Origin: Bacteroidia bacterium | GTDB lineage: Bacteria; Bacteroidota; Bacteroidia; AKYH767-A; 2013-40CM-41-45 | NCBI GenBank assembly: GCA_035438225.1 | Contig: DAORHY010000001.1 | Location: forward strand, 1 to 40,357 | Reading direction: 5' to 3' | DNA: 40,357 nucleotides | Shown: positions 2,817 through 40,357 of the stretch, piece after piece | Position numbering within the stretch: the first letter of the stretch is position 1 | Layout: each line of letters starts with the position of its first letter | The notes under the pieces: generated by a model | Database searches by the model: none | What the model was told of the DNA's origin: nothing | The model's input: only the letters and a program-made list of their open reading frames with translations | Made by a program: the position numbers and the translations under genes

Positions 2817-2849
2817 AGGTGAAGTGTTGGGTGAAAGAAACATTCATTT

Positions 2850-4577: not shown

Positions 4578-4601
4578 ACCGAAGCCATCAGCGCCTCCGG
4601 A

Positions 4602-13064: not shown

Positions 13065-13067
13065 AAA

Positions 13068-13075
13068 CAAAAATA
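13068..13075 (-). promoter_or_regulatory. -7 promoter box (TATTTTTG) of the tracrRNA
   Basis: The minus strand reads TATTTTTG, matching TAnnTTTG, 4 nt upstream of the first anti-repeat base. A TTG lies 19 nt further upstream (GTTG-N19-TATTTTTG). Confidence 0.45.
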
Positions 13076-13114
13076 TCCATTTATTCAATACAAACAACAT
13101 TACCCCAAAAAAAT

Positions 13115-16100: not shown

Positions 16101-16987
16101 AAGGATTGGCTCAATTTGAGTCGCAATATCATTTTACAGATGTAACTGTTTTCAGCAATGAATCTGTTGTGAAGTACAATTTGAATAAAGACTTCAAGGA
16201 AAAAGACATTGAATCCATCGTCGACAAAGGCATTCAAAAAAAGGTTCGGGAACATCTCTCAATGCACGGAAACAATCCCAAAGTCGCCTTTAGTGCTGAA
16301 CATCCCGTGTGGTTTAACAAGGAGAAAAAGATTCAGATTAAGTCTGTCCGCTGTAAAACCGGAAACGATAATTTACAAAATCTTCACCGGGATGCTAATG
16401 GACGAAAGATTGATTTTGTTTCAACAAGTAACAATCACCACATAGCAATATACAAAGATGCATCGGGCAAACTTCAGGAAAATGCCGTAACCTTCTGGGA
16501 TGCTTTTGAACGCAAGAAAAATGGCCTACCTGCTATCATCAAAAATCCAAAAGAAACCTGGGATACTGTTCTAACAAACGGCTTAGACAATCAGGTTTTA
16601 CTTTCCAATCTTCCAAAAGAAGACTGGACATTCATTACTTCCCTAGAACAAAATGACATGTTTGTGTTTGGAATGACAATGAATGAAATTCAAAATGCAA
16701 TTGAAAAGCAAGAATATGAGCCGATTAGCGAGCATTTGTACCGAGTTCAAAAACTATCAGAGCTATACTATGTTTTTAGATTCCACATTGAAACAAAAGT
16801 TGATGACAAATTTGATGGAAGTAAAAACGAAAAAGTGTCTATGGAACTTGGAAAAATGAAACGCATCACAAGTCTTGGCACAATGAATGGAATAAAAGTG
16901 AAAATAAACAAATTGGGTAAATTAACTCTGGAAGATAATCAACAAGGAATAGTAAATAAAATACTGGTGCAGGAAAGTACGTCTTGA
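13115..16987 (+). CDS. cas9: Cas9, type II-C (1290 aa)
   Basis: RuvC-I is MKKILGLDLGSTSIGWALI and the Arg-rich bridge helix is RTFKRGARRGMQRYKLRK. RuvC-II is IRVELARDL. The HNH domain is YDIEHIIPKSRLFDDSFSNKTICPRHLNSGSKGKNQNTAFDF and RuvC-III is HRHHAIDAL. cas1-cas2 and the array follow directly. Confidence 0.95.
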   Translation: MKKILGLDLGSTSIGWALINEPETEKEVFQIVGMGVRIIPLSKDENDEFTKGNAISKNASRTFKRGARRGMQRYKLRKEALVKILQSLQMMPDADHFNLSALNLYSLRDRGLHDQLSLKEIGRILFHLNQKRGYKSNRKANNDEVEGKAEKDSPEPEIDDNAKSKVSKKPGYLDQINNRENLIEKENLTIGQYFYSELKKDPYFRIKENIFMRKSYENEFDKIWIKQQEFYPSILTDEIKDKIKNEIIYYQRPLKSQKGLVSYCEFERKIYFDKTSTPIKEIKGGPKVTPKSSPLFQVAKIWQELNNIEITSFKAIKNSNQTPESGFNEEGKRSLTLDEKKHIFEKLNFGDKITPKEILTLLGYKSGYNEYKINLRNEKFMEGNRTLAAIKKVFDKHDENYNEFLHFDLQIEQSNRVDPETGELFPAVNCNFEKEPLYKLWHILYSIDDNSDVIKTLTQKWNMSLKVATDLAKLDFQKSGYGNMSAKALRNILPHLMNGFQYPKACEMAGYNHSNSRTKIENQIRPLLEKIKLYEKNSLRQPVVEKVINQVINLINDLIDEKTGLISGEERNAKDKFEIRVELARDLRQSAEERNKAFKSITDADKKHKAIVEELIPIISSVSKRDIEKYKLWKEFEGISPYEPSKVIGLRELFNKNDGVIYDIEHIIPKSRLFDDSFSNKTICPRHLNSGSKGKNQNTAFDFMKLQGDDILNNYVEVVKKHLYKKDGISKSKFNKLMMQGDKIPEDFINRQMQETRFISKEVRSLLEQVSRNVYATTGSVTAKLRDLWGWNDILMNLQIEKYRAAGQVELKEFTRDGQIHQVERIKDWSKREDHRHHAIDALTVACTKQAHIQKMNTLNSQHTRDEMYNAVGNNGYERKLNILEKYLVSQRPFSTDQVSKEAAKILISYKAGKRLFSKSKNKIRVKNGNKIQITLTPRGFLHKETVYGEIKQFEKAKLNPRFTRFDDIADPNQGSLVKQHLNNFNGDPKKAFGSKGLAQFESQYHFTDVTVFSNESVVKYNLNKDFKEKDIESIVDKGIQKKVREHLSMHGNNPKVAFSAEHPVWFNKEKKIQIKSVRCKTGNDNLQNLHRDANGRKIDFVSTSNNHHIAIYKDASGKLQENAVTFWDAFERKKNGLPAIIKNPKETWDTVLTNGLDNQVLLSNLPKEDWTFITSLEQNDMFVFGMTMNEIQNAIEKQEYEPISEHLYRVQKLSELYYVFRFHIETKVDDKFDGSKNEKVSMELGKMKRITSLGTMNGIKVKINKLGKLTLEDNQQGIVNKILVQESTS

Positions 16988-17008
16988 TAAATTCAAAAAT
17001 TATAAAGG

Positions 17009-18282
<1,274 letters not shown>

Positions 18283-18450
18283 ACAAACGTACTCACCTCT
18301 CACTCACTTTGATCCTGATTCCGATCAATTTCAACCAATCAGGATTAAAAATTTCGGTTATTTCTTCTTTACCAAGACAAGTTTCCCATGTTTTTTAAAT
18401 CGGTAATTCCCTCTGGAATACCTGATTTTACTGGGCTTTCAACAACCTAT

Positions 18451-19342
18451 GTTGTTCAGTCTTATGTCAAAGATACATTTTGAAAGCAAATCACAACTTC
18501 TAACCGCCCACTCGTTGCTTGAATCCGTTGTTCAGTCTTATGTCAAAGATACATTTTGAAAGCAAATCACAACCAATCAAATATTGAATATCCGGATTCT
18601 TTTGTTGTTCAGTCTTATGTCAAAGATACATTTTGAAAGCAAATCACAACCCGAAACATCGTTTCCCAATACAAGATCAAGTTGTTCAGTCTTATGTCAA
18701 AGATACATTTTGAAAGCAAATCACAACCTGCGAAAATGTCAAACCATCTTGTCGGTGTTGTTCAGTCTTATGTCAAAGATACATTTTGAAAGCAAATCAC
18801 AACAAGGTGAGTAGCTCATCTGCCATGATGAAAGTTGTTCAGTCTTATGTCAAAGATACATTTTGAAAGCAAATCACAACCCATGGATCTGAATTGTTTT
18901 TTAAAAGTCGGTTGTTCAGTCTTATGTCAAAGATACATTTTGAAAGCAAATCACAACCAGTGAAGGTTTCCGGATTACTCTCTGAGAGTTGTTCAGTCTT
19001 ATGTCAAAGATACATTTTGAAAGCAAATCACAACTCCGATTTGCCTCAAAGGCCTCCCGTCTGCGTTGTTCAGTCTTATGTCAAAGATACATTTTGAAAG
19101 CAAATCACAACTGCCGGTGGCTCATCATCAGATTGATGATGGTTGTTCAGTCTTATGTCAAAGATACATTTTGAAAGCAAATCACAACCTCGAATAAATT
19201 GAACATTTTGCTTTGAAAGTTGTTCAGTCTTATGTCAAAGATACATTTTGAAAGCAAATCACAACTTCAATTGTTGCGAATGTTTTCATATCGTTGTTGT
19301 TCAGTCTTATGTCAAAGATACATTTTGAAAGCAAATCACAAC
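18451..19342 (-). CRISPR. CRISPR array: 12 identical 47-nt repeats and 11 unique spacers (29-30 nt), functionally read from the minus strand
   Basis: The plus-strand repeat is GTTGTTCAGTCTTATGTCAAAGATACATTTTGAAAGCAAATCACAAC. Repeats start at 18451, 18527, 18604, 18681, 18757, 18834, 18911, 18988, 19065, 19142, 19219 and 19296. The minus-strand form GTTGTGATTTGCTTTCAAAATG... is the canonical Bacteroidetes II-C orientation and is the strand complementary to the tracrRNA anti-repeat. Confidence 0.97.
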
Positions 19343-19581
19343 AACCGTTTCAAAGCTTTTCAATCGCGGTAAGTTAATGTTCTCAACTTTATTCGGAGAA
19401 CTGAACCAGCCAGCCGGAAGGCAGGTTTCCACCGTGTACAAATGTATCTGTGAAGCACGGCCCCCAGCTATCGCTAACCTCTTGTGAATGGATGCTCTGC
19501 TGTTCGTTCGAAGACGGATAACCCAAATGTAGCATGCACTTCATCCATAACACTGAGTGTACGTTGCAGAATTTAGTTGCT

Positions 19582-20130
19582 TCATTTTTTCGAAGAATAG
19601 CCGGCTCTATAACCCAATAAATAACTTATTGGTGCAAGTATCAGATAAGTCAAAAGTTGAATCGGCCAGGGAGGATTTACCACACGAATTTCGTCCATAT
19701 GTTTTAACCCCATTAATGGTAACTGCAAAAACGGAGGCATGCCTTTATCACTGAGTTTGGCGTCTTTAGCGAGTGCAAAAAAGGACTCAAAAAATTCGTC
19801 AATATGAAGCGCGGGAGTAAATTGCTGAACAGAGTGCGCTTCTGTATCGTCCTCATTCCAAAAACAATGGGGAGCACCGGCAGGGATAACAATCTTTTCG
19901 CCTGGCCCAACTATTTGTTCCTTGCCATTCACCACGAAATGAAGTCTCCCCGAAATTACTTTAGCAGAACTTTCTTGTTTGGGATGAACATGCATTGGCT
20001 CTCTCATGTCCGATTTAGGATTGAAAGATTCAATTTCCAATAGTTGCCCATTTGTTTCCTTGCCTGTTTGAAGGAAAATCATTTGTTGCCCTGTCCGTAC
20101 GTTTGTGATTTTGTCTCCTTGCTTTGCCAT
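19582..20130 (-). CDS. Cupin-domain protein with C-terminal hydrophobic tail
   Basis: The 182-aa product has a cupin core (EPMHVHPKQESSAKVISGRLHFVVNGKE...GEKIVIPAGAPHCFWN). The C-terminus PWPIQLLTYLILAPISYLLGY is hydrophobic. Confidence 0.7.
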   Translation of the reverse strand: MAKQGDKITNVRTGQQMIFLQTGKETNGQLLEIESFNPKSDMREPMHVHPKQESSAKVISGRLHFVVNGKEQIVGPGEKIVIPAGAPHCFWNEDDTEAHSVQQFTPALHIDEFFESFFALAKDAKLSDKGMPPFLQLPLMGLKHMDEIRVVNPPWPIQLLTYLILAPISYLLGYRAGYSSKK

Positions 20131-20313
20131 TGCTTTTAGGTTATGAAATTTATACGTTTTTACGTCTCAGTTACCGTGTCGAATGCCAGTCACCATTACC
20201 GTTTTGCGACCAACCGCCGTTTAGTGCGATGTCCACCTGCACGTTTGAGTGCAACATGCAAAAAAATGTTGGTTGGTTGCTGTTAGCGGCTCGTTGTTTT
20301 GCCTTGGTTTATG

Positions 20314-20760
20314 TCATTCGTTCAGAGAACGAATGCCTTGATCTTTAAGTTTTGTTAGTGCATCTTTCATAGCTTTCACCTGCTCGTCCGGGTGTCCTTG
20401 CCAAACGGAAACTTCTCCTACAACTTTAAACGGTTGCATCGAACGATAAGATTTTGTCGGATTACCCGGAAATTTTTTGTCTGTCAGGTCGGGGTCGTCT
20501 TCAATTTGTCCGGTTGGTTCTACTAAGTAAATTCTTCCCCGTCCTTCACCAATGGCGAGTTCTGCTCCCCAAATTGCAGCGTCCAATGTTGCGGTCAGGA
20601 AAATATATTTTGCATTTCTTCTTTGTCCAAAATTGGAGTGGTTTCCAGCTTCAATTAAGTCGCCAACTTTAAGGTCTGCTTTTGTCCCGTGAAAATACGT
20701 TTGAGCAAAAGGCGTCGGGCCTTTTCCGAATGATTTTTGTTCGTCTTTGCCCTGTTCCAT
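20314..20760 (-). CDS. arr: NAD+--rifampin ADP-ribosyltransferase (Arr family)
   Basis: The 148-aa product is collinear with Arr-2 as I recall it. Shared blocks are YFHGTKADLKVGDLI, YIFLTATLDAAIWGAELA, GRGRIYLVEPTGQIEDDPDLTDKKFPGNPTKSYRS and VWQGHP. Confidence 0.88.
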   Translation of the reverse strand: MEQGKDEQKSFGKGPTPFAQTYFHGTKADLKVGDLIEAGNHSNFGQRRNAKYIFLTATLDAAIWGAELAIGEGRGRIYLVEPTGQIEDDPDLTDKKFPGNPTKSYRSMQPFKVVGEVSVWQGHPDEQVKAMKDALTKLKDQGIRSLNE

Positions 20761-21303
20761 TTGTAATTATTTATTTCTGAATGATTGTTCGTCTGTCGTC
20801 CAACAATGGCCGTTAACGAAGAAGAGGTTAAAGAAGTAAAATAAACGGTTGGCGGTATGGCCAGTAAGGGATTACGGGCGATTTCCTAACAGGTTCGACA
20901 AAAAGTTGAAGCGAGTTACAATCCTTCGCAAACCATTGAAACCCTTATTGGCTTTCCAGCGTGTTGTCCGCTGTATTTATCGATATTCAGGTGTTTAAAT
21001 TATAATAAGGTTTATTGTCCACGTTACAGTATCGTTTCTTGAAAAAATGCAGCATCAAGGACACAAGGACAGATAGTAGCTATCTCACACAATAACTGGA
21101 TTCCATCAGCCGCAAAATGAAAAATACCTTATCCTACAGCACTACTGGTGAAAATAAAATTGGGAATCCAACGTTTTTCAGCCAATTCGATATCCATGAG
21201 TCAATAAGAATTAAATATTTTGTTAAACCTGGTTTACAAAGTCCATGACTTTAATGTTGTCTGTTTCTTCAATTTGCCCGGTTCAGTTCATGATAATACG
21301 AAT

Positions 21304-21714
21304 TTATAAAGAATAATCACCAGCTGCTTCCGGTTGATAAATAATTTCATCAATCCGAATATTTGTAAGACCCGCAGGAACAATCCATTCTATTTCATCA
21401 GCAACTTTATATCCAATCAGTGCTGTCGCAATTGGTGAAAAAATTGAAATTTTATTTTCCTTTAAATTTGCCTGGTCCGGATACACTATCTGAAATTGTA
21501 CCTGCTTATTGTTATTCAAAAAACTCAATTTTACAATTGAATTCATTGTAACAACATTTGAGGGTATAGCTTCAGGCTCCACAATCTCGGCAGAATCCAA
21601 TTCTTTAATTAATTTTTCAGCTTCTGCGTTGCTAATTGATTTAAATTGCTTCGCATCGCTAATGGACTTTTTTATGCGTGCGTAATCAAGTCGGTTAATA
21701 ATTATCCTTTTCAT
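21304..21714 (-). CDS. rnk: GreA/GreB-family regulator, Rnk-like (nucleoside diphosphate kinase regulator type)
   Basis: The 136-aa product has a short N-terminal helix (LDYARIKKSI...AEKLIKELDSAEIV). Its C-terminal Gre-type FKBP-like domain reads VTMNSIVKL...IFSPIATALIGYKVADEIEW. Confidence 0.75.
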   Translation of the reverse strand: MKRIIINRLDYARIKKSISDAKQFKSISNAEAEKLIKELDSAEIVEPEAIPSNVVTMNSIVKLSFLNNNKQVQFQIVYPDQANLKENKISIFSPIATALIGYKVADEIEWIVPAGLTNIRIDEIIYQPEAAGDYSL

Positions 21715-21740
21715 AATTAGTAATTTATAAAATATTCATT

Positions 21741-21748
21741 CAAAGATA
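21741..21748 (-). promoter_or_regulatory. -7 promoter box (TATCTTTG) of the rnk-like gene
   Basis: The minus strand reads TTGTATCTTTGAATG, ending 27 nt upstream of the ATG at 21714. Confidence 0.45.
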
Positions 21749-21870
21749 CAAGTTTATAAATTGAATAGCTATCAATTAGTTTAGATGGCTCGTCAATACG
21801 AAACAAAACGGTCATCAGCCGAAATTCTTTTTCAGAGCAAGTATCCACGCAACCGCCGGTTCCAATTTTG

Positions 21871-22653
21871 TCATATCGCCTTTCGGGGTTTTGTGGTGAA
21901 CTGTTTAAAGTTTGTCAATTTACTATCCCTGAATGTAAAACGATGCGCGTATTCGGATTCCATATTTTGCGTACTGCCCGTCGGTTTAAAGATCGTATCA
22001 AACAATAAAAGTACATCGTCCCCATCAGCAAAATATTTTACTGGTTCAAATTTTATCACCTGACCTGAAGCTGCTACCTCTTCAAAAAATTTAGTAACCC
22101 CGGCCTTCCCCTCAAATACAACAGGGTTTTTAATAAATGGGTTATCTCTGACATCCCAGGCAATGTTTTCATCACACGCATCAAGAATTCCATCGATATT
22201 TCTCTTTTTAAAATTATTATATATCCCTAAAACAAGATGGGTAGCGGGATTGGTTATGGCACTATAACCTATTTGGTAAAATAGTTCATTCGGATTAGTT
22301 GGCCTGCGTGATAGAAATTTGCCCGAAGCATCGAAATGAATGACTTCGATGGTGTTGATATTAATTTTTTTACCAGACGGAGGCAGAAAGCCCAGCACTT
22401 TTCCTGTATTGGTGCCTGTGGTCGTTGTTTCCACAAATACCCGACTCCCATCCACTGTAATGCCATTGACCTGAATGCTCAGGTCGGGAAACATTTCATT
22501 GTATGTTTTATATGAAATGATAGCCGGGTCAGAACTTTTGAAAGCCGGTCCCCCGGCTGAATAATCAACAAACTCCGGAGCACAGAGGCCTTTAAATGTT
22601 TCATAGTCACCTTTGCTTAGACTTTCATAAGCGAGTGTTACATTATTTTTCAT
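21871..22653 (-). CDS. Tandem SnoaL/NTF2-like protein (ester-cyclase-like N half, ketosteroid-isomerase-like C half)
   Basis: The 260-aa product has an N half YESLSKGDYETFKGLCAPEFVDYS...VFVETTTTGTNTGK...NINTIEVIHF. The C half is IYNNFKKRNIDGILDACDENIAWDV...YAHRFTFRDSKLTNFKQF. The family is assigned from the motif pattern only. Confidence 0.6.
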   Translation of the reverse strand: MKNNVTLAYESLSKGDYETFKGLCAPEFVDYSAGGPAFKSSDPAIISYKTYNEMFPDLSIQVNGITVDGSRVFVETTTTGTNTGKVLGFLPPSGKKININTIEVIHFDASGKFLSRRPTNPNELFYQIGYSAITNPATHLVLGIYNNFKKRNIDGILDACDENIAWDVRDNPFIKNPVVFEGKAGVTKFFEEVAASGQVIKFEPVKYFADGDDVLLLFDTIFKPTGSTQNMESEYAHRFTFRDSKLTNFKQFTTKPRKAI

Positions 22654-22807
22654 ATTTCTGCTTTTGGATTGCCGGCAAGATCACGCGGGAGGAATTTCAA
22701 GCTAAGAACTAAACAGTGTACTAATTTCTTCCTCATTTGTTTATCCTGTATTTCATGTATGATGTCGTAAACTGACGGGCAACTATAGTTGAATTAAAAC
22801 CACAAGC

Positions 22808-22953
22808 ATGGCACACAACGAAGAAGGGTTTAAAGAAGTAAAAAAAGAAGGGTTTAGATGCATCCCGCTCGAGCGGGATTCGTTTACCCACAATGTTTGT
22901 TAGAAGCACAACTGTTTGTTTACCTCTCAAAGCCCTTCTTTTTTAATTTCTTT
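22808..22953. repeat. Nested palindromic element
   Basis: The outer arms are AAAGAAGTAAAAAAAGAAGGGTTT (22832-22855) and AAAGCCCTTCTTTTTTAATTTCTTT (22929-22953). They enclose a perfect 18-nt palindrome, ATCCCGCTCGAGCGGGAT (22862-22879). The left end overlaps a mini-ORF motif also found at 20806-20844. Confidence 0.55.
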
Positions 22954-29814: not shown

Positions 29815-31086
29815 TCACTGTTTATTCAGCTCGTCAAACTTTGCTTTCATTGTCGGATTGCCATGAGTTAATTTTTTTATACTTAAATCTTCGGCTTTTT
29901 GATTTGCAAGCCGAAGGTTGTTGTCAGAAGACAATAAAGCGTCTTTGGTTTTTTGCAGGTGGTCAATGGTTTTATCAATTTCTTCAATGGCAGTTTTAAA
30001 TTTACGACTTGCTAATTCATAGTTTCTCGCAAATCCTTCTTTGAAAGTATTTATTTTTTCTTCGAAATCAGTAATGTCTATATTTTGATTCCTTACTAAA
30101 GCAAGTTCTGCTTTATAGCGCATAGAACTCATGGCTGCGTTTCGAAGAAGTGTAATTATCGGAATGAAAAATTGAGGACGCACCACATACATTTTGCTGT
30201 ATTTATGCGATACATCAACAATTCCTGTATTATAGAATTCGCTTTCCGCTTCTAAAAGAGAAACAAGAACAGCGAACTCGCATTTTTTCTCGGTGCGGTC
30301 TTTATCAAGTTCTTTTAAAAAATCTTCATTCCTTTTTTTGGTCGCCGTTTCATCACCCTCATTTTTCATCTCGAACATTATTGAAATGATTTCATTTCCA
30401 GCCTCGTCAGTCTCCCTATAAATAAAATCTCCCTTGCTACCGGATTTTGATTCATTGTCTTTTTCAAAATAGGCTTTTTGAAAAGCTGTTGCACGAAGTT
30501 TGTTAAACTCTGTTTCACAATGTTGTTCAAGTGTTTCGCCTAACATTTTAGTTGATAATTTCAACTTCATATCTTTGCGAAGCGCGATCTCCTCGTCTTT
30601 GTGCTTAATAATGGCGTCTTTTTCCTTTAGTTCAGCAGAGTATTTTTCACTTAATGCCTTTTCAAGAAGTTGTTTTTCTGTGTCTTTTATTTTTACAACA
30701 TTGGCCAAATCATCACGTTCTTTTTCAACTTTTTGGGTAGCTTCTGCAATTGCAAGTTTCCGTTCAACTTCGGCATTGTCAAGTTTCGCTTTCAGTTGTG
30801 TTAACTCAGTTTCTTTATGGGATAATTTTTGGGACAATTCAACATCCTTTTGAGCCGTCAGCTTGGTGAGTTCGTTATCTTTCCTTGCAAATTGTTCATG
30901 CAGGGAATTTCTAACATTGGCTTCTGCTAATTTTACGGCACTCTCTTTTTCGATTTCTGCAAGTGTCAGGCGCTTTAACAATTCTTCTTCAAATTGATGG
31001 TCACGAACTTGTTTTAGAATTTCAGCAAAGCCAGCCTCATCTACATTAAAAGCTTTTTTACAATTAGGACAAATTATTTCGTTCAT
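29815..31086 (-). CDS. DUF2130-type protein: N-terminal zinc ribbon, long coiled coil, C-terminal PD-(D/E)xK-like module (RmuC-like architecture)
   Basis: The N-terminus is [13 protein letters not shown]. About 180 aa of E/K/L-rich heptads follow, then [25 protein letters not shown] (D...E-x-K). The DUF2130 name is from recall. Confidence 0.7.
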
Positions 31087-32214: not shown

Positions 32215-33597
32215 TTATTCCTTTTCTTGTTCAGTCGGAATTGGCTTATTGGTTTTTTTCCAAACTTCATTTCCCTGGCGACCCTTGATTTGTAGTTTTT
32301 CAATTTCACCTGTATCATTTCTTGAAAATTCTATGGTTGTCATCATGCTTTCAAAGAAAAACTTATCCTTTTGGTATGCATTCACTTTATATTTTGTGCT
32401 GCCACTTCGCTGAGAATACAGTTGATTTTCCGACAGGGAAATCAGGCGTTGTTCTCCTTTCACATTTTCATAAACGCCGGTATAGCCTTTCAGTACAGTA
32501 TTTTCAATGGGAATTTCTTTGTATTCGTAAGGCTTTCCAATGGTGAGTGCAGCGATTTTTGCGCCAATTACATCCGGTGGATTACAATTGCAATTTGAAA
32601 AAACAGCAACAAATACATCCTCTTTGGGTAAATAAATTGATTGAGTCAAAAATCCATTGATCCCTCCACCATGCTCAATAGTAGGCCTTTCCTGAACGTT
32701 GTCTAAATACCAACCATAGCCATAATCTGTTTCAGTACCATCCGTCAATGTATACTTTGTAAAAGCTTTATCGAGGCTTTCCTTTTTTACTAATTGACAG
32801 GAATGAACGGCCTGATGCCACTTAAATAAGTCTTCTACCGTTGATTGTATCGAACCTGCTGAGTAAGGTTGAGTCATACTGATAGGAGGAGCATTTACAA
32901 AACCAATACTATCTTTATCATAAGCACCCGCCCTGTATTTTACAATTTTTGAATCGCTACCGTACAGTGAATTTGTCATGCCAAGAGGCTTAAAAATGTT
33001 TTCTTCTACATAGTGTGCATAGGTTTTGCCTGTAATTTTTTCAATAATATAACCCAGTAAAAAATACCCCGAATTGCTATAATTCCACTTTGTGCCAGGA
33101 GCAAACTCCATCGGCTCGTTTTTGAAATGGTTAATTAATTCACCTGGTTTCAAATCTAAACTCATTTTTTCTTCAAAATCTTTCATATCCGTATAACTCC
33201 GGATGCCTGATGTATGCGTAAGCAAATGCTCAATGGTGATGGTATGTCCATGCGTAGGATAATCAGGGATAAACCTGGTGATGTCGTCTTGCAAATTCAG
33301 TTTTCCTTGTTCCATCAATTGCAATATGACCACAGCTGTAAATTGCTTGGTGATCGAGCCAATTCTGAAAACATTGTCCACTTGCATCGGAATAGCATAC
33401 TCCAAATTAGCCATGCCAAATGCTTTTTTATAGAGAATACGACCATTTCGGGCTACCAAAGCCGTTGCTCCCGTTTCATTGGATTTGTATTGCTCCGACA
33501 ACATTTTGTCAAATCCAGAAAAGAGTTGTTTGTTGTCTATTTGTTGTGCAAAAGTATGGTCAGCCAAAAGGCAAAGAGTAAGGAATAAGATTTTCAT
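32215..33597 (-). CDS. Beta-lactamase-family serine hydrolase with extra C-terminal domain
   Basis: The internal ATG at 33597 gives the signal peptide MKILFLTLCLLADHTFAQ. The S-x-x-K box is FRIGSITKQFTAVVI and the YSN box is WNYSNSGYFLLG. HGGGINGF is HxG-like. Confidence 0.8.
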   Translation of the reverse strand: MKILFLTLCLLADHTFAQQIDNKQLFSGFDKMLSEQYKSNETGATALVARNGRILYKKAFGMANLEYAIPMQVDNVFRIGSITKQFTAVVILQLMEQGKLNLQDDITRFIPDYPTHGHTITIEHLLTHTSGIRSYTDMKDFEEKMSLDLKPGELINHFKNEPMEFAPGTKWNYSNSGYFLLGYIIEKITGKTYAHYVEENIFKPLGMTNSLYGSDSKIVKYRAGAYDKDSIGFVNAPPISMTQPYSAGSIQSTVEDLFKWHQAVHSCQLVKKESLDKAFTKYTLTDGTETDYGYGWYLDNVQERPTIEHGGGINGFLTQSIYLPKEDVFVAVFSNCNCNPPDVIGAKIAALTIGKPYEYKEIPIENTVLKGYTGVYENVKGEQRLISLSENQLYSQRSGSTKYKVNAYQKDKFFFESMMTTIEFSRNDTGEIEKLQIKGRQGNEVWKKTNKPIPTEQEKE

Positions 33598-33670
33598 TTT
33601 TATCAATATGTCTTTTAAAATTATTTGCTGACTTTTTAAGCTCACACAGAACGACAGTTCGAGCAAAAAT

Positions 33671-33678: not shown

Positions 33679-34157
33679 ATTAATATTCTATAGCCTATTC
33701 TGTTCCTTAACCGACTGTACAGCAAAAAAATAGTTTTGGCACAAAAGCAGAAAAAACATCAACTGACTATGCATTCATTTCCATAACTGTACCCGGTTTT
33801 CATACTTTGAAAAACATCTTAACACTTTTAAAATTTCATAGCAGAAATTTAATGTAAGGCTACCGTCGCATCAGTTCAACACAGGATTAAAACGCTGCTC
33901 CGCTTCGCTGCACGCGTTTAATCCTTATATGTTGGCACCTGGTGTTCTGTCGTCCGTCCTTGCAAACCATTGTCAGTATTGAGTTTCAGTATCATTGTCT
34001 GTCGGATTGTGCGTTTCGTTTTTTATTTTTTTTTGAAGGGTCGGGAAATTTTTTAAAAACAATTTTTCTCTGCGTTGGCTTTGCAAGCTCTTTGACAAAG
34101 CTTTGGTCTGTGCTTGGGCTTGTGCGGCTTTGGCAATGTGCTTGCAAAATGCGTGGA

Positions 34158-35537
34158 CTATTTTTTAATTGTCTTCAAAGTTTCGTTAATCTCCTTCATT
34201 GTGTCTGTTAGTGTTTTACTTCTATAGCCAAAAAAGCTTGTTGGTTTGTCTTTCATCATTGATGGCAAAGAATAAATTGTAGAAACTGCTTGTAAAATCA
34301 GGTCTTCTTTTTTCGAACCAGAAATGTCACCATACGCTTGAACTGTCAAGGCAATAGCAGAACGAAAAGCATATTCTTCTTGAAAAGTCCTTTCTCTCAC
34401 ATATTGTTTAATGGTAAAGAATAGTACTATCATTATCGGTGTTGATTTCAAAGAATTAATTACGAGAAACTGCCAATCAATTGTTTGGGGCATTGGCATT
34501 GCTGTAATCAATCCAAAGAAGTTTGTAAATATTCCAATTATTAATAACAATGCCGCAACACCAGTTCCAATTACAATCAAGGCCCAACGTTTTACTGGAG
34601 CTTCTAAATCTTTTTTTCTGTCGTTGAAAGTATTGAAAAGTCGCACTGCTCCTTCTTTCCCAATCAATTCATTTAAGACTAAAATTTGTTTATCAAATGT
34701 TTTACTCTGTTCTAAAACAGAAGCAAGCATTTTGTCAAATTCAACATTTTTCTTTGAACCGTTTTCAATTTCAGTAGTGAATAACTCTTTTAATTCTTTG
34801 ATGTCCTTTTGGAATGCAGTATAAACAGTTTTCTCTTCCTCAATTTTTTTAGTAATTGTGTCAAGATTTGTATTCTGTTGAGTTAAAAGACCGTTTATTG
34901 ATTCATTCGTAGCGGTACTTGTATTCAGAAGTCTGTTTATTTCTTCCGAGTTATTTCTTGCTGTCGGTAATAAGCCTTCAATCTCTGCTAGTTCTTTCTT
35001 TTTAGTTGCAACGAGTAATTCAAGATTTTCCTTTTCTGTTTTCAGAGATTCAAGAAGCGTTTTATTTGTTTCAATATTTTTGGCAAGGTGCTCGGAAATT
35101 AGCCTCAGTTTGCTTTCCATTTCTGTAATTTGAGCAAAACGCTTTTTGTCATCTCTCTCTAAAACCTTGTCCCAAAAACCATTTGCAACTTGATAGTAAA
35201 CCAAACGAGTTAAAACATTTACTGCTTCTGCGAAATTGTTTGCTTCTAGGTATGCATTTAAATTGGCTAAATCATCACCTAAATTACCATTGCCAAAATC
35301 ATTTTGAAATTGATATTGAAACGGAAGAATATTTGAAAATGGAGTTTCAAGAACTTGCCCCAACTGCGAAATAACCTTTTTAGAGTATTGCGACAATTCG
35401 CTTACGGTGTAATAGCCAACAGCAATGCTTGAAAGGTCTGTGTAGTCCTTATAAACTTCTGCAATACGTTTGTCAATTTCTAATTTCCAAAACGGCTCTA
35501 ATTGGGCTAATACTCTTTGTTTTTGTTCTTGATTCAT
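34158..35537 (-). CDS. Uncharacterised coiled-coil protein with C-terminal 2-TM module; fourth gene of the type I R-M operon
   Basis: The 459-aa gene starts 14 nt after the hsdS stop on the same strand. The N-terminal helical domain is about 135 aa, followed by about 170 aa of E/K/L/N/T heptads. The hydrophobic segments are WALIVIGTGVAALLLIIGIFTNFFGLITAM and WQFLVINSLKSTPIMIVLFFTI (nt 34407-34586). The tail is an amphipathic RERTFQEEYAFRSAIALTVQAY. I recognise no family. Confidence 0.7.
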   Translation of the reverse strand: MNQEQKQRVLAQLEPFWKLEIDKRIAEVYKDYTDLSSIAVGYYTVSELSQYSKKVISQLGQVLETPFSNILPFQYQFQNDFGNGNLGDDLANLNAYLEANNFAEAVNVLTRLVYYQVANGFWDKVLERDDKKRFAQITEMESKLRLISEHLAKNIETNKTLLESLKTEKENLELLVATKKKELAEIEGLLPTARNNSEEINRLLNTSTATNESINGLLTQQNTNLDTITKKIEEEKTVYTAFQKDIKELKELFTTEIENGSKKNVEFDKMLASVLEQSKTFDKQILVLNELIGKEGAVRLFNTFNDRKKDLEAPVKRWALIVIGTGVAALLLIIGIFTNFFGLITAMPMPQTIDWQFLVINSLKSTPIMIVLFFTIKQYVRERTFQEEYAFRSAIALTVQAYGDISGSKKEDLILQAVSTIYSLPSMMKDKPTSFFGYRSKTLTDTMKEINETLKTIKK

Positions 35538-35551
35538 CTTCTTTATTTTAT

Positions 35552-36886
35552 TTAAACTTCAACCGGTTCTTTTCTCAACGCCTCTCTCAAAACCTGTTGC
35601 AGTAATTTTTCTTTTTGTAATTCACTTTGTTTGATGCTTGCTTCCAACTCATTGCAATACTGCATTAATTCATCTAATTTTTGAACGATACGGTTTTGTT
35701 CTGCAATAGGCGGTAGAGGGAAATCAATTTCGCTTAAAATCTTTAAACTTAGAAACGGTTGTAAACCACCTTTTGTAAGCTCTGCATAAATTTCATCTTT
35801 TCTTAAAAGGAAGTAATAGAAAAGCAGCTTATTTAAAATTAGGCTTTGATTGAACTTTAAAATTGCTGTATTCTTAAAACTAAATTCAAAATCAACATCA
35901 ATTATCGCAGGAGTTCCACATCCAGCACCAATATTTACAACTAAAATTTCACCTTTTTGTGGGTATGCTTTTATATATAGCTCTCTATGATATTTTTCAT
36001 CAACGTAATTGCAATTGTCCCAATCAATTTTATCTGACTTAACTTGGGTTGCAGCTATGTATGGAATTCCCTTTGAAACTTTAGGCGGAGTATTATGAAA
36101 GCCATCGGTTATTTTAGTGCAAATTTCTCCTAACCTACACCAAACCCAATTTTCAGGAATGTCAAACGGGATTTCTTCAGGTTTGATGGGTGGTATTTCT
36201 TTTTCCTTTTTGAGTTTCTTTTCTGAAATCAGTTTTTCTTTTTCGGCTTTTATCTTTTTAAGCAATTCGCTTGCTGGTTCGTCTTTGGGGTTTGGCTCTA
36301 CCAATTTGCCTTGCACCGCATCTTGCAACAATTGCTGACGGAGTTTTTTTACTAAGGTGAGTTGGTGGGTAAGTTCGGTGGAGATTTCTATTGAATTATC
36401 TTTTTTACTTGACAATTCTTTTACAATTTCCTCCTGTTCATCAATATCTGGAAATGGAATTTCTATTTCTAGTATTTCTCTTTCGTGAATAGATTTTTGT
36501 GCAGAACCAGTAGTTTGAATTTTGTTTAGTTCATCATAAAAATACGGGGACTTCAAAAGGAATTTCAAATATTCTAAATTGATTCCTTCAACAGAAAACA
36601 TTGGCATATTTTCAGTGGCAATGCATCCATCAACCTCTAACGGAGCTATACCAATTGAACCATCCTGTACACCTTGTCTTACGAACATAAGTGTATTTGG
36701 ATATTTTTTAAGGTCAATTTGAAATTGCCTTTTACGCCCAATTTCTTTACCCATTTTAGTGCCACGAAATGTTACACCATCATATTTTGAAATAGTCACC
36801 TGCTTGTATTCAATATCATTTTGAACTAGGTGCTCAATCCGGTATTGTTTTAAAATTTGCTTCAACTTTACTTTCTTCCAACTCAT
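35552..36886 (-). CDS. hsdS: Type I restriction-modification specificity subunit
   Basis: The 444-aa gene has an ATGA overlap with hsdM. Two target-recognition halves are separated by a K/E-rich central helix (ELLKKIKAEKEKLISEKKLKKEKE). The conserved C-terminal helix is FPLPPIAEQNRIVQKLDELMQYCNELE. Confidence 0.88.
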   Translation of the reverse strand: MSWKKVKLKQILKQYRIEHLVQNDIEYKQVTISKYDGVTFRGTKMGKEIGRKRQFQIDLKKYPNTLMFVRQGVQDGSIGIAPLEVDGCIATENMPMFSVEGINLEYLKFLLKSPYFYDELNKIQTTGSAQKSIHEREILEIEIPFPDIDEQEEIVKELSSKKDNSIEISTELTHQLTLVKKLRQQLLQDAVQGKLVEPNPKDEPASELLKKIKAEKEKLISEKKLKKEKEIPPIKPEEIPFDIPENWVWCRLGEICTKITDGFHNTPPKVSKGIPYIAATQVKSDKIDWDNCNYVDEKYHRELYIKAYPQKGEILVVNIGAGCGTPAIIDVDFEFSFKNTAILKFNQSLILNKLLFYYFLLRKDEIYAELTKGGLQPFLSLKILSEIDFPLPPIAEQNRIVQKLDELMQYCNELEASIKQSELQKEKLLQQVLREALRKEPVEV

Positions 36887-38319
36887 TTCACAGCCTGTTT
36901 AAGTGAGTTCAGTAATTTGTGGCTTTTCTCAAAAGAAGCATTCAACATTTCAATCAGTTCAGCACTGTTGTACTCTTTTTCTTCCTCGGGCTTGGTTGGG
37001 TTCTTTATGTCCAAATCATAGCCACGTTCAATAATGGTTTTAATATTTACTTTCCAAGCAATTTCACTTTCCTTGCGTTTGTTCCACCATTTTTTAGTCG
37101 GGTCAAATTCTTTTAATTGAATTGGTCTTGTTTTGTTGTATGCTTTATAGCCTTCGGGTATTCGGTGTTCGTAATACCAAATGTCTTTGGTGGGTTTTCC
37201 TTTATCAAAAAACAATAAGTTGGTAGCCACTGTTGCATAAGGCTGAAAAACTGAATTGGGCAAACGAATAATGGTGTGCAGGTTACAATCTTCCAACAAT
37301 TTTTGGCGTATGCGTTGTTTTACGCCATCGCCTGTAAGGCTGCCATCGGGCAAAACAATTCCTGCTCGTCCGTCTTGCTTGAGCAAATGAATCATTAAGA
37401 TTAAAAACAAATCCGCACTTTCTTTTGTACGGTAAGTTTGTGGAAAATTGGTTTCGTTGTTGTTGGCTACAATGCCACCAAATGGCGGGTTTGCCAATAT
37501 CACATTTACTCGGTGCTTTTCGGTGTAGTTGCTCAAAGGTTGGTCTAAAGCATCTCCAAATTTTATGTTCGGAATTTCGATATCGTGTAAAATCAGATTG
37601 GTGGTTGCCAATAAGTACGGCAAAGGTTTGTATTCCCAACCTGCAATGTTTTCTTCAATGCTTTTTCTGTCTTTTACGTTTTTGGCTTGTTTCTTCAAAT
37701 GCTCAATAGCACAAGTCAAATAACCACCCGTTCCGCAAGCAGGGTCAAGCACCTTTTCGCCCAATTGCGGATTAATCATTTCTGTAATGAATTGCGTAAT
37801 GGCTCTTGGTGTATAAAACTCACCACTTTTGCCAGCACTTTGCAATTCCTTTAAAATGGTTTCGTATAATTCGCCAAAAGCGTGGCGGTCTTTGGCAATG
37901 TTAAAATCAATTTCATTCAGCTTGTTCAACACCTTACGAATGTTGATACCGCTTTTCATATAGTTGTTGTTGCCCTCAAATACTTCACGGACAATAACAG
38001 CCCTTTGGTTGCCTGTGCTTAAATCTAAATTGCGAAGAGCAGGGAATAATTCACGGTCAACAAAATTCAGCAATTCATCACCCGTCATTCCTTCATCATC
38101 ACCTGCCCAATTGCCTTTTTCTTTTACCCAATGAAATTTGTCGGGAATGGGAGATTTGTATTTGTCGTCCAGTAATTCTAATTCTTTGTCTTTATCCGAA
38201 AATATTTTTAGAAAAAGCATCCAGCCCAATTGTTCAATGCGTTGTGCATCGCCATTAAGGCCTGTGTCTTGCCACATTATATTTTGGATACTTTTTACTA
38301 TGCCTCCTATATTGCTCAT
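36883..38319 (-). CDS. hsdM: Type I restriction-modification N6-adenine DNA methyltransferase subunit
   Basis: The 478-aa product has the N-terminal HsdM_N block (LWQDTGLNGDAQRIEQLGWMLFLKIF). The AdoMet motif is VLDPACGTGGYL and the catalytic motif is ILANPPFGG. Confidence 0.93.
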   Translation of the reverse strand: MSNIGGIVKSIQNIMWQDTGLNGDAQRIEQLGWMLFLKIFSDKDKELELLDDKYKSPIPDKFHWVKEKGNWAGDDEGMTGDELLNFVDRELFPALRNLDLSTGNQRAVIVREVFEGNNNYMKSGINIRKVLNKLNEIDFNIAKDRHAFGELYETILKELQSAGKSGEFYTPRAITQFITEMINPQLGEKVLDPACGTGGYLTCAIEHLKKQAKNVKDRKSIEENIAGWEYKPLPYLLATTNLILHDIEIPNIKFGDALDQPLSNYTEKHRVNVILANPPFGGIVANNNETNFPQTYRTKESADLFLILMIHLLKQDGRAGIVLPDGSLTGDGVKQRIRQKLLEDCNLHTIIRLPNSVFQPYATVATNLLFFDKGKPTKDIWYYEHRIPEGYKAYNKTRPIQLKEFDPTKKWWNKRKESEIAWKVNIKTIIERGYDLDIKNPTKPEEEKEYNSAELIEMLNASFEKSHKLLNSLKQAVK

Positions 38320-38325
38320 TCTTTC

Positions 38326-40357
38326 TTACGCTGTTTTGTATAATTCAATTTCTAATTCTTTTACGGCTTGCAAATATTTTTCTTTGCTGCCAAACTCGTT
38401 GATGATTTCAAGCGGGGAACCAAATTCATCAAACGGATTTACTCTCAATACTTCAATGCTTTCAATATTGGTAATACCTTCATCTGCATATTTGTCTAAC
38501 AAGGCTTCCAATACTTTTTTGGCTTGGTCGCCATACTTGGTAAAGTAGTTTCGCTTCTTTACGTTGTTGGCTCTTTCTTTTCGGGTTAATGGTGGTTGGT
38601 CAAATGCAACGTGACAAATCAAGTCGAACAAATCCACTTCTTTGTTCACTGCATCATACAAAGCTTCCACCATTACGCCTTGCTCTTGTAATTCAGCAAT
38701 GATGGCTTCCTTGCGTTCGGTGGTGTTCCACTTGTTCAAAAAGTCGTCAAGCGATGTAAATTTTTCTTTGATGATTTCTTTGGTGTGGTCTTTTAAACTG
38801 GTGGTGATGGGTTTTCCGTGCTGGTCGAAATACATTTCACGACTTACCAAAACCGAAACGTCCACACCATTTACATAAACCTTTTCTCGTTTTGCTTCGG
38901 GGTCTCTGGCTACCCAATTGCCACCCAATTTTGAACCATCAGGATAGCGAATAGTTGCCTTTTCAAATTTGATTTCTTCTCCTGTTGCTTCGTCTAAAAC
39001 GGTTACCGTGTTTTCTTCTTCCTCAATAACTACCAATGATAAATCTTCATCTTGCGAAACTGGTTTTACACGAATTGGGTCACCGTCAAAATCTTTGTCG
39101 GCAAACAAATCTGTTGCGTTTCTGAAATCAAGAATGGTGAAATACATTTTGCCGTATTCCTCATTGATTCTTGTTCCTCGTCCAATGATTTGTTTGAATT
39201 TGGTCATTGAATTGATGTTGGCATCCAACACAATTACTTTACATGTTTGTGCATCTACACCAGTTGTCATCAATTCAGAAGTAGTGGCAATGACTGGATA
39301 TTTTTCTTCGGGATTAATGAAGTTGTCTAACTCTCGTTTACCTTCGTCATTGTCGCCAGTTATTTGCATAACATATTTGTAATTCTCTGCCACCAAATCA
39401 GCATTTTGTTTGGCTAATGCAGTTCGCATACGTTCAGCGTGGTCAATGTCCACACAAAACACAATTGTTTTGGCGAAGCGGTCGTAACCTTTTAAAAACT
39501 CTGTAAGTTTTTTGGCAACTAATTCTGTCCGTTCTTCAATCACCAAATTGCGGTCAAAGTCCTTACGGTTGTAAATTCTATCTTCAACAATGTTTCCGTC
39601 TTTATCGGTTTTGCCTTGGTCTGGTCGCCAACCTTCGGCATCCACATTCAATCCAATTCTAACCACACGATAAGGAGCAAGGAAACCATCGTCAATACCT
39701 TGTTTCAAAGAATAGGTATAAACAGGGTCACCAAAATATTCGGTGTTGCTTGTTTCTTTGGTTTCCTTTGGTGTAGCAGTTAAACCAATATGCGTAGCAT
39801 TTTTGAAGTAAGATAAAATTTCTCTCCAACTGCTATCTTCTTTTGCACTTCCTCTGTGGCACTCGTCAATAACAATCAAGTCGAAGAAGTCAGGCGAAAA
39901 CTGTTTGTAAACATTTGCATCTTCGTCTGAACCGGATAAACCTTGATACAAAGCCAAATAGATTTCATAGCTTTTATCAATTTGACGGTGTTTTACCACC
40001 GTCATTTTATCTTTAAAATGTTTGAAGTCGCCTCTACGAGTTTGGTCAATCAAAGCGTTACGGTCGGCTAAAAACAGAATACGTTTTTTTGCTCCGCTTT
40101 TCCAAAGTCGGTGAATGATTTGAAAAGCCGTATAGGTTTTTCCAGTTCCTGTTGCCATCACAAGCAGAATTCTATTCTGTCCGTTGGCAATGGCTTCAAC
40201 GGTTCTGTTTACGGCAATTTGTTGGTAGTATCTCGGTTTACGGTTAGTTCCGTCAAAATAGTAGTCTTGCGAAACGATTCTTTCCGCTTCGGGAGTTTCA
40301 ATGCCTTTATACTTTTTGTATTTCTGCCACAGTTGTTCAGGAGTGGGGAAGTCTTCT
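38326..40357 (-). CDS. hsdR: Type I restriction enzyme R subunit (helicase/nuclease), 5' end outside the window
   Basis: The SF2 motifs are RILLVMATGTGKT (I), VIDECHRGS (II), LTATP (III) and QIIGRGTR (VI). The frame stays open from 40161 to 40357 (..YYQQIAVNRTVEAIANGQNRILLV..), so the listed start at 40161 is not the real start. Confidence 0.93.
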   Translation of the reverse strand, partial: EDFPTPEQLWQKYKKYKGIETPEAERIVSQDYYFDGTNRKPRYYQQIAVNRTVEAIANGQNRILLVMATGTGKTYTAFQIIHRLWKSGAKKRILFLADRNALIDQTRRGDFKHFKDKMTVVKHRQIDKSYEIYLALYQGLSGSDEDANVYKQFSPDFFDLIVIDECHRGSAKEDSSWREILSYFKNATHIGLTATPKETKETSNTEYFGDPVYTYSLKQGIDDGFLAPYRVVRIGLNVDAEGWRPDQGKTDKDGNIVEDRIYNRKDFDRNLVIEERTELVAKKLTEFLKGYDRFAKTIVFCVDIDHAERMRTALAKQNADLVAENYKYVMQITGDNDEGKRELDNFINPEEKYPVIATTSELMTTGVDAQTCKVIVLDANINSMTKFKQIIGRGTRINEEYGKMYFTILDFRNATDLFADKDFDGDPIRVKPVSQDEDLSLVVIEEEENTVTVLDEATGEEIKFEKATIRYPDGSKLGGNWVARDPEAKREKVYVNGVDVSVLVSREMYFDQHGKPITTSLKDHTKEIIKEKFTSLDDFLNKWNTTERKEAIIAELQEQGVMVEALYDAVNKEVDLFDLICHVAFDQPPLTRKERANNVKKRNYFTKYGDQAKKVLEALLDKYADEGITNIESIEVLRVNPFDEFGSPLEIINEFGSKEKYLQAVKELEIELYKTA

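Follow-up and report, generated by a model that had tools for sequence, protein, structure and literature searches.

A portable gene behind a type I restriction operon encodes a predicted stalked membrane protein of an unnamed family with a likely role in defence

What is an uncharacterised gene doing at the end of a type I restriction-modification (R-M) operon, and does it belong there? The question is raised by ORF459, an open reading frame (ORF) of 459 amino acids (aa) on contig DAORHY010000001.1 of the Bacteroidia bacterium assembly GCA_035438225.1, of which positions 1 to 40,357 (hereafter the window) were analysed. A first-pass annotation, made from the sequence alone, had regarded the gene as an hsdS-linked component of the operon and a candidate membrane effector. 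We find that ORF459 is a real, constrained gene of a large unnamed family, and the limits of its DNA homology indicate that it is a portable, self-contained 1.39-kb cassette consisting of the ORF and a leader of 14 nucleotides (nt). Copies of the cassette are found behind or inside unrelated restriction operons, and others are carried in defence islands, on plasmids, by temperate phages and by a satellite-like element. Based on genomic context and protein anatomy, the function of ORF459 is likely to be defence-related.

The ORF459 gene and the hsdRMS operon

The genes and sites at this end of the window are as follows.
34158..35537, minus strand: ORF459 coding sequence, 459 aa plus stop, ATG start (ORF listing)
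35538..35551, minus strand: A-rich 14-nt leader ATAAAATAAAGAAG, from the hsdS stop to the ORF459 start; 5' edge of the proposed cassette
35552..36886, minus strand: hsdS, type I specificity subunit (Methylase_S, E=7e-24; PADLOC Specificity_I, E=1e-77)
36883..38319, minus strand: hsdM, type I N6-adenine methyltransferase (N6_Mtase, E=2e-72, and HsdM_N; PADLOC MTase_I, E=6e-189)
38326..40357, minus strand: hsdR, type I restriction subunit, partial (ResIII, SWI2_SNF2, EcoEI_R_C); ends at the window edge
34080..34148, strand not assigned: inverted repeat with 22-nt arms (repeat search), beginning 10 nt past the ORF459 stop

The four genes follow one another on the same strand in the order hsdR-hsdM-hsdS-ORF459, separated by a 6-nt gap, a 4-nt overlap and a 14-nt gap; this is the packing that the first-pass annotation had described, and the ORF listing, Pfam and PADLOC all bear it out. 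The hsdR frame is open through base 40356, the last full codon, and the HsdR proteins of relatives have 799 aa; thus the gene is incomplete here because it runs off the window edge, and an interrupted hsdR was rejected. No terminator-like site was found between hsdS and ORF459. Given this and the A-rich 14-nt gap, co-transcription and translational coupling of the two genes are plausible from the sequence. Bacteroidota are generally independent of Shine-Dalgarno sequences, and the missing Shine-Dalgarno sequence at ORF459 is therefore uninformative. Between ORF459 and its counterpart in the closest genome relative (locus L001), protein identity (94%) exceeds DNA identity (86%), which points to purifying selection.

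The inverted repeat downstream of ORF459 has arms that are 86% complementary and a 25-nt spacer, is common to L001 and a second relative (L002), and lies outside the cassette. We do not claim it as a terminator, its fold being no better than that of shuffled sequences (z=-0.9); it could instead be a recombination or regulatory site.

Boundaries of the cassette

The extent of the mobile unit was read from junction alignments of the window with two relatives in which the gene follows other enzymes, a Type ISP enzyme (L066) and an M.Eco57I-like methylase (L003). In these comparisons, DNA homology starts at 35551/35552 and ends at 34159-34164, at the stop codon. Homology is thus limited to the stretch from leader through stop, suggesting that the ORF and its 14-nt leader together form the unit that moves. 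Against relatives with an hsdS context, homology extends further, into the C-terminal and central parts of hsdS, and the target-recognition domains (TRDs) are swapped. In the window, hsdS is accordingly a mosaic: only its central (~36108-36405) and C-terminal (35552-35722) parts match the relatives L001, L002, L060 and L063, at 77-86% nt identity, and both TRDs are unrelated to those of the relatives, alongside hsdR and hsdM genes that are 78-89% identical.

Family extent and searches for known families

We identified 192 close homologues of ORF459, and an exhaustive profile search returned 204, 365 and 930 cluster representatives (50% identity) at E<=1e-30, 1e-10 and 1e-3, respectively. Family members are nearly all ~450 aa long and align end to end. 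They occur in Bacteroidota and in Gammaproteobacteria, the latter including Enterobacter, Pantoea, Shewanella, Pseudoalteromonas, Vreelandella, Ferrimonas, Endozoicomonas and Acinetobacter. At the DNA level, complete E. coli genomes contain no match to the Enterobacter homologue.

The first-pass annotation had seen no methylase, nuclease or NTPase motif in ORF459 and had recognised no family, and the library searches agree on both counts. No such motif was found in the protein, and single-protein searches of Pfam, NCBIfam, PADLOC, PHROGs and PDB sequences returned only coiled-coil noise (DruC, JetC, SMC, ANG-1); the PADLOC matches, to DruC, JetC and LmuB, were of this kind and had E>=7e-4. A Pfam scan of 108 family members gave no informative match, and the isolated head and C-terminal modules had no Pfam match at E<=10 beyond coiled-coil and transmembrane (TM) noise. 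P-loop and nuclease families were not detected, matches to SMC-like models again being coiled-coil noise. The domains Methylase_S, N6_Mtase/HsdM_N and ResIII/HSDR_N are absent from ORF459 and present in its three upstream neighbours. A Foldseek search with AlphaFold models, which the first-pass annotation had proposed, was run against PDB with both models and also against BFVD and gave nothing significant, the best match being an uncharacterised phage protein at E=0.012.

Resemblance to methyl-accepting chemotaxis proteins (MCPs) was considered and rejected: the profile match against PDB covers the stalk only, and the MCP coils score E~1e-6, weaker than designed coiled coils. Pfam scans of ORF459 and the family gave no match to an MCPsignal or HAMP domain. 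In the literature that we consulted (a search by accession, BREX diversity papers, the GR13 plasmid paper, an R-M review, and a preprint on embedded defence genes with its supplements), no description of the family was found. Thus, both the family and the layout of its proteins are new, and an accessory, probably membrane-acting defence gene on a restriction operon is of a known kind.

Protein architecture and conservation

Residue counts for the family refer to 129 sequences, and an AlphaFold2 (AF2) model was built on 129 diverse homologues. The model has a mean pLDDT (predicted local distance difference test) score of 83, with values of 88-97 in the head (residues 1-118). The head is compact and mostly helical, with two small beta hairpins. 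It is followed by a single very long helix (127-338) that runs into TM helix 1 (TM1), a loop, a helix (355-405) that comprises TM helix 2 (TM2) and the conserved motif, and two more helices. Along the gene, the parts of the protein are arranged as follows.
35163..35537, minus strand: N-terminal head domain, residues 1-125 (AF2 pLDDT 88-97; conserved P72, G82, Y115, G120, W122)
34683..35162, minus strand: coiled-coil stalk, residues ~126-285 (3.5-residue periodicity; sequence variable, length fixed)
34587..34682, minus strand: juxtamembrane helix, residues 286-317 (VLNELIGKEGA..LF.TFNDRK; L291, G293, L300, F304 and R307 conserved family-wide)
34512..34586, minus strand: predicted TM1, residues 318-342 (hydropathy and column profiles; W318, W332, F337 conserved)
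34476..34511, minus strand: predicted short periplasmic loop, residues 343-354 (no K/R; positions 347-353 gapped in most members)
34407..34475, minus strand: predicted TM2, residues 355-377 (near-invariant polar stripe N361/K364/P367)
34323..34406, minus strand: signature cytoplasmic helix, residues 378-405 (QY.[KR]ER..QEEYAF[KR]SA.ALT..AY; entropy 1.08 bits)
34158..34322, minus strand: C-terminal helices, residues 406-459 plus stop (P425 invariant; 3' edge of the proposed cassette)

Two stretches and no more, ~318-342 and 355-377, stand out as membrane segments by hydropathy, and no signal peptide was found in ORF459. Both TM flanks are rich in K/R, and the loop that connects the two segments is short and uncharged (~5-6 residues in most family members). 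The positive-inside rule predicts a cytoplasmic location for head, stalk and C-terminal part, and hence for both termini, making ORF459 a predicted bitopic inner-membrane protein. The TM topology that the first-pass annotation had suggested computing is therefore that of two segments with both ends inside. Its description of the protein as a helical N-domain, a coiled coil, two hydrophobic segments and a conserved tail is likewise matched by the AF2 model, hydropathy, family columns and periodicity.

No part of the family is more conserved than the tail RERTFQEEYAFRSAIALTVQAY. Ordered by increasing entropy, the regions are the post-TM2 motif (1.08 bits), TM2 (2.01), the juxtamembrane helix (2.18), TM1 (2.53), the head (2.78) and the stalk (3.04). 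Within TM2, position 364 is K or R in all 129 sequences; P367 is found in 126, F374 in 114 and N361 in 111 of them. In the signature motif, E387 and T398 are invariant, and conservation reaches 97% or more at R383, E382, Y389 and Y402; R307 of the juxtamembrane helix is conserved in 127 of the 129.

The stalk is variable in sequence and constrained in form. Averaged hydrophobicity has a strong 3.5-residue periodicity over residues ~134-300 with no phase break, and the heptad pattern ends at the juxtamembrane helix. The spacing between W122 and W318 is 196 aa in 53 sequences and 189 aa in 34, a difference of exactly one heptad. The stalk is thus a real, continuous coiled coil of ~165-175 residues; at 0.148 nm per residue, its full extension would measure roughly 25 nm. 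A hairpin at P191, as in the AF2 model from a shallow alignment (fold-back at residues 192-197), is unsupported family-wide, since the family alignment has no conserved Pro/Gly in the stalk and almost no indels, and the phase is unbroken. The head is mildly acidic (median net charge -4), and a basic, nucleic-acid-binding head was rejected on this ground.

Links to restriction systems

We next consider where the family is found. The context survey comprised 57 species-level loci, whose 865 neighbouring ORFs were clustered. The restriction contexts, with the identity of each homologue to ORF459 where available, are as follows.
Window clade, 85-94% identity: hsdR-hsdM-hsdS, 11-15-nt gap, gene
L066, 82% identity: gene 11 nt after a single-chain Type ISP enzyme
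L003, 78% identity: gene 41 nt after an M.Eco57I-like methylase
L012, 43% identity: hsdR, PD-(D/E)XK, gene, hsdS, two ORFs, hsdM
L071, ~25-28% identity: hsdM, Fic, hsdS, 12 nt, gene, 29 nt, hsdR of 1083 aa (another type I subfamily); GmrSD nearby
24 Acinetobacter plasmids including p3ABAYE (L058), 33% identity: gene nested in BREX-1, overlapping pglX on one side and pglZ on the other by 4 nt each
L055 (Oleiphilus): gene upstream of pglZ in a same-strand cluster
L005 and L019: hsdM-like gene downstream of the homologue

Seven restriction systems lie within 3 kb of a homologue in the 57 loci, five of them within 100 nt. An eighth, in L055, is 3.7 kb away and belongs to the same-strand BREX cluster, which brings the loci linked to a methyltransferase-based system to 8 of 57. 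As an internal control, 567 kb of far flank from the same loci contained no independent restriction system. Adjacency to, or embedding in, a type I system is seen in the window, L001/L002, L060-65, L012 and L071, which represent three independent cases (the window clade, L012 and L071). Strict nesting on one strand occurs in L058 (pglX/pglZ), L071 (hsdS/hsdR) and L012; the gene in the window is terminal and not nested.

Most copies in the family are solitary, separated from the neighbours on either side by 100-800 nt, and no conserved partner gene emerged from the clustering, the best non-self cluster being an ABC-F ATPase in 5 of the 57 loci. Linkage to hsdS as a family-wide trait was therefore rejected, because it holds for a minority of copies only. 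Of the earlier proposal of an hsdS-linked component, the link to restriction survives, since it has arisen repeatedly and independently; the specific tie to hsdS does not extend to the family as a whole. The gene is better described as a portable module with a frequent place behind restriction genes than as a component of the type I operon. Homologues do lie near R-M and other defence loci, and no housekeeping family was matched, in line with the first-pass interpretation.

These contexts bear on the possibility that ORF459 is an accessory structural or regulatory subunit, which would hold a type I, ISP or BREX complex to the membrane close to where DNA enters, as a tether or scaffold, or would regulate the activity of restriction. 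The junctions with hsdS, pglX and pglZ are of the kind expected for translational coupling, and the long, rigid stalk could serve to space a DNA-bound complex from the membrane. However, most copies are solitary, and a single close clade is found with three R-M types that differ in their biochemistry. The swapped TRDs of hsdS beside an unchanged ORF459 further imply that there is no co-variation with the supposed partner. The Acinetobacter NEB394 BREX, consisting of brxR, brxA, brxB, brxC, pglX, pglZ and brxL, restricts and methylates with these seven genes and no such ORF (PMC9122589). Thus, the homologue is not a core part of BREX, and the BREX-borne ORF is an insertion in p3ABAYE-type plasmids. 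We consider a subunit role highly improbable.

A second reading takes ORF459 as a guardian of restriction. The head of this membrane effector would monitor the methyltransferase/specificity module common to type I, Type ISP and BREX systems, or DNA-mimic anti-restriction proteins; the effector would be inactive while the module is intact and would fire on an anti-restriction factor (an Ocr/ArdA-type DNA mimic or a Stp-like peptide). Its output would be collapse of the membrane potential via the K364-lined TM hairpin, that is, the logic of PrrC and PARIS with membrane damage instead of tRNA cleavage. In every operonic case the gene stands directly after or beside the methyltransferase/specificity part (hsdS, the C-terminal TRD of Type ISP, M.Eco57I or PglX), and the cassette has switched R-M type with its position and tight coupling kept. 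Both type I enzymes and BREX PglX are reported Ocr targets, and PrrC and PARIS have been described as R-M guardians embedded in such loci (PMC12707154). However, most members have no restriction system within 10 kb, which would require sensing in trans or of something else, and the phage- and satellite-borne copies have no linked methylase. A mildly acidic head is also unexpected in a binder of acidic DNA mimics. This reading is accordingly unlikely in our estimation.

Several of these operons carry further genes of note. In the type I operon of L001, a 202-aa ORF lies between hsdR and hsdM (~3950-4660) and a 294-aa ORF between hsdM and hsdS (6098-6979). The L012 operon also embeds a 130-aa protein with a PDDEXK_3 nuclease fold (9447-9839), and 159-aa and 504-aa ORFs occupy the interval between its hsdS and hsdM (13001-13480 and 13487-15001), with a second copy of the 504-aa family nearby. 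Downstream of the homologue in L066 (6472-9396), unannotated 505-aa and 170-aa ORFs and a 159-aa SLATT_1/DUF4231 protein together resemble a small stack of genes that are membrane or defence candidates. On p3ABAYE (L058), Fic and WYL (BrxR-like) genes precede the BREX-1 operon, and directly behind it a 1576-aa 'AAA domain-containing protein' is encoded (18125-22855); the whole segment is flanked by insertion sequences (PMC9455709).

Other defence, mobile and housekeeping contexts

Outside methyltransferase-based systems, the immediate upstream neighbours in some loci are HamB (Hachiman), GmrSD or a UvrD/GajB-like helicase, and the Aquirufa copy is flanked by TIR_2 and GIY-YIG genes. A Pfam census of two genes on each side lists integrases, GmrSD, Shedu SduA, Fic, McrBC, NgoBV, DarT1-NADAR and IS110 transposases. 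In relatives, operons of the window's type are carried by an integrative element inserted next to mnmE (integrase, HTH_17, DUF3987), in the company of Mrr-like or AbiEii genes.

The Enterobacter copy resides in a satellite-like element with a P4-type integrase, a P2-family capsid, Ash, and a Zn-ribbon/Toprim/DUF927 primase, followed by Ogr/Delta. In three Enterobacter loci (L038, 11409-12308; L045, 11412-12323; L056, ~2128-3024), an ORF of 299-303 aa begins 48-55 nt after the homologue on the same strand. This ORF has no Pfam match and could be a lineage-specific partner.

Phages carry the gene as well. A temperate Riemerella phage encodes a full-length member (hhalign probability 100%, E=4.5e-42) between its early genes and a helix-turn-helix (HTH)/integrase module. 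Members were found on 18 IMG/VR contigs, of which 14 represent one phage lineage that keeps the order RecT (on the opposite strand), gene, HTH.

This fixed place beside the lysogeny module of a temperate phage lineage, a typical site of exclusion genes, suggests another role, superinfection exclusion or a block to DNA entry. An inner-membrane protein would here stop incoming phage or conjugative DNA without killing the cell, like P22 SieA and T4 Imm in role. The predicted inner-membrane location with a short periplasmic loop is compatible with such a role, as is carriage on plasmids and on the satellite-like element. However, the loop, of only ~5-12 residues, is little exposed to an incoming phage, and almost all of the conserved mass (the head and the 25-nm stalk) is predicted to be cytoplasmic, a better fit to intracellular sensing. 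The invariant polar residues of TM2 suggest gated conductance. We regard an entry block as improbable.

The same contexts allow that the gene does not serve defence, being either a maintenance or competition factor of mobile elements (an addiction-type membrane toxin or conjugative entry exclusion) or a hitch-hiking membrane function. Consistent with this are the frequent association with integrases, transposases, plasmids and satellites, the copies that adjoin housekeeping genes, and the lack of a match to any known defence model. Truncated or split copies, found in L035, L036, L044 and L057, are also as expected of dispensable cargo. However, random hitch-hiking hardly explains the repeated same-strand embedding in BREX and type I operons, with 4-nt overlaps and ~12-nt gaps, and the clustering of the 865 ORFs revealed no conserved antitoxin-like partner. 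Moreover, in a published survey most genes embedded in such systems had neither mobility nor housekeeping functions (10.1101/2024.01.29.577857). A function outside defence is doubtful to us.

Proposed mode of action

Taking context and anatomy together, we infer that ORF459 is an autonomous, single-gene module against phages or mobile elements, which in the window would be co-expressed with hsdRMS as a second line. 'Guilt-by-embedding' has proved productive elsewhere: of nine candidates (HECs) embedded in Hma and tested, seven were working defence systems (preprint 10.1101/2024.01.29.577857). According to the same preprint, even one embedded instance is informative, and known systems are often rarely embedded, Zorya II having been found embedded once and 1,590 times outside.

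In the mechanism that we propose, the cytoplasmic, variable head would be the sensor and detect an infection cue. The rigid stalk would relay the resulting change to the conserved bundle of juxtamembrane helix and post-TM2 helix, which would act as a gate with R307, R383 and E387 as candidate salt-bridge partners. The TM hairpins of a putative oligomer would then rearrange into a polar, K364/N361-lined leak or pore, the buried K364/N361/P367 stripe of the hairpin constituting the putative membrane-perturbing output. Finally, the membrane would depolarise and the infection would be aborted. From context and anatomy, we consider such a membrane-permeabilising, abortive mechanism a serious possibility rather than the probable outcome.

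Several observations weigh against this interpretation. (i) Approximately 86% of the species-level loci have no adjacent restriction system. (ii) The neighbour census is a raw list, without a matched background of random genes. (iii) Some copies lie beside housekeeping genes (GlnRS, RecO/PorZ, chorismate synthase, ABC-F ATPase), at what seem to be the edges of islands. (iv) In all public sources the label is 'hypothetical protein'. (v) ORF459 has no match beyond coiled-coil noise among the PADLOC models (PADLOC-DB v2.0.0), and none at E<=0.1 to the embedding candidates PDC and HEC. (vi) Neither structural nor sequence similarity to a known pore-former or effector was found. (vii) The proposed pore is deduced solely from the polar stripe of TM2. 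(viii) Two AF2 runs disagree on a fold-back of the stalk at residues 192-197.

Comparison with known systems

Known defence systems share parts of this layout. PrrC and RloC are likewise same-strand accessory genes in or beside a type I R-M operon and presumed second lines when restriction fails (PMC12707154). ORF459 differs from them in being a predicted membrane protein with no ABC-type ATPase, no anticodon-nuclease domain and no sequence match; furthermore, PrrC is found almost exclusively embedded (10.1101/2024.01.29.577857), whereas most members of the ORF459 family are not linked to R-M. PARIS, an R-M guardian from a satellite hotspot (PMC12707154), is comparable in that members of the ORF459 family are found in a satellite-like element as well as in BREX and type I operons. 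However, PARIS is a two-protein system of an ATPase and a Toprim nuclease that cleaves tRNA, whereas ORF459 is a single gene that has no match to AAA_21, Toprim/DUF4435, AriA or AriB and no conserved partner.

Lambda RexAB, AbiZ and AbiC/AbiP are membrane-acting abortive or exclusion functions carried on prophages and plasmids. The rexAB genes sit beside cI, as the phage-borne homologues of ORF459 sit beside the lysogeny module, and sensor and channel are split between the two Rex proteins. AbiC has two TM helices, and AbiZ has no identifiable domain (PMC13064643). The PADLOC models of RexB, AbiZ and AbiC/P do not match ORF459, and the RexAB and Abi proteins lack its head, 25-nm stalk, C-terminal TM hairpin and QEEYAF motif.

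Similarity to SLATT proteins, proposed membrane-perturbing effectors in conflict systems, is one of layout only, a two-TM hairpin with flanking helices. A SLATT-type two-TM domain was rejected, as SLATT_1-6/DUF4231 are unmatched by the full protein, by 108 family members (E<=0.05) and by the isolated C-terminal modules (E<=10). By structure, SLATT-annotated viral proteins appear only at Foldseek E~2. SMODS, SLOG and other nucleotide-signalling genes were not among the top neighbour families.

ZorA is a membrane-anchored defence protein whose very long cytoplasmic coiled-coil tail is thought to relay a signal between envelope and cytoplasm. ORF459 shares the membrane anchor and the very long, predicted cytoplasmic coiled coil. 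Unlike ZorA, it has no MotA/ExbB domain, only two TM helices and no partners like ZorB, ZorC or ZorD, and its domain order is opposite, with head and stalk first and the membrane part last.

For the HEC and PDC candidates the underlying argument is the same as ours, namely that nesting in BREX or a type I R-M operon makes an uncharacterised gene a candidate for defence. They differ in that no model matches ORF459 and in that the gene in the window is appended to the 3' end of its operon and not embedded in the strict sense. No mention of the Acinetobacter accession was found in the portion of the embedding preprint's supplementary text that was available (10.1101/2024.01.29.577857). Thus, ORF459 at most works like the PrrC/RloC, PARIS, RexAB/Abi, SLATT and HEC systems and is not a member of any of them.

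Other features of the window

At 13115-19342, ~15 kb away from the R-M operon, the window contains a type II CRISPR-Cas locus. It encodes a 1290-aa Cas9 (RuvC_III and HNH_4; 13115-16987) and Cas1 (17009-17941) and has an array of ~12 units with a 77-nt period (18451-19342); the region has a low GC content (0.35-0.36) and a strong AT skew. Positions 29815-31086 (minus strand) encode a 423-aa DUF2130 protein (E=6.5e-87) whose N-terminal part weakly matches a zinc ribbon (E=0.006, below the Pfam cutoff) and which has an apparent long, charged helical region; PADLOC and NCBIfam gave no match for it. Approximately 490 nt downstream of ORF459 is a gene for a protein with Beta-lactamase and DUF3471 domains (32215-33666, minus strand). 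The same domain pair occurs in an unrelated metagenome-assembled genome (L068, 1-1432), 4.6 kb from a homologue of 33% identity. This shared neighbour is probably a coincidence, since the family is common in Bacteroidota. Sorting domains of the type IX secretion system are encoded elsewhere in the window and, with the closest relatives, assign it to Bacteroidota; no tRNA genes or Rfam families were found in it.

Significance

If ORF459 is an anti-phage module, it would add a widespread, unannotated single-gene system to bacterial immunity, one that comprises at least ~200 clusters at 50% identity and is spread across Bacteroidota, Gammaproteobacteria, clinical Acinetobacter plasmids, an Enterobacter satellite-like element and temperate phages. 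We know of no characterised defence protein that combines a head in the cytoplasm with a heptad-quantised stalk of 25 nm and a TM hairpin in which an invariant lysine is buried. The family is missed by defence-finding tools, among them the PADLOC models derived from embedding screens, and terminal, appended genes such as ORF459 fall outside strict embedding criteria. Accessible test cases are the p3ABAYE BREX of Acinetobacter with and without WP_001030448.1, and the Enterobacter copy WP_395301258.1.

Were the guardian reading true, ORF459 would be the first R-M guardian with a membrane output, and this would explain why one cassette docks behind hsdS, the Type ISP TRD, M.Eco57I and PglX. The repeated capture of the gene behind the methylase or specificity genes of four restriction-type systems provides a natural experiment on the layering of second lines of defence.

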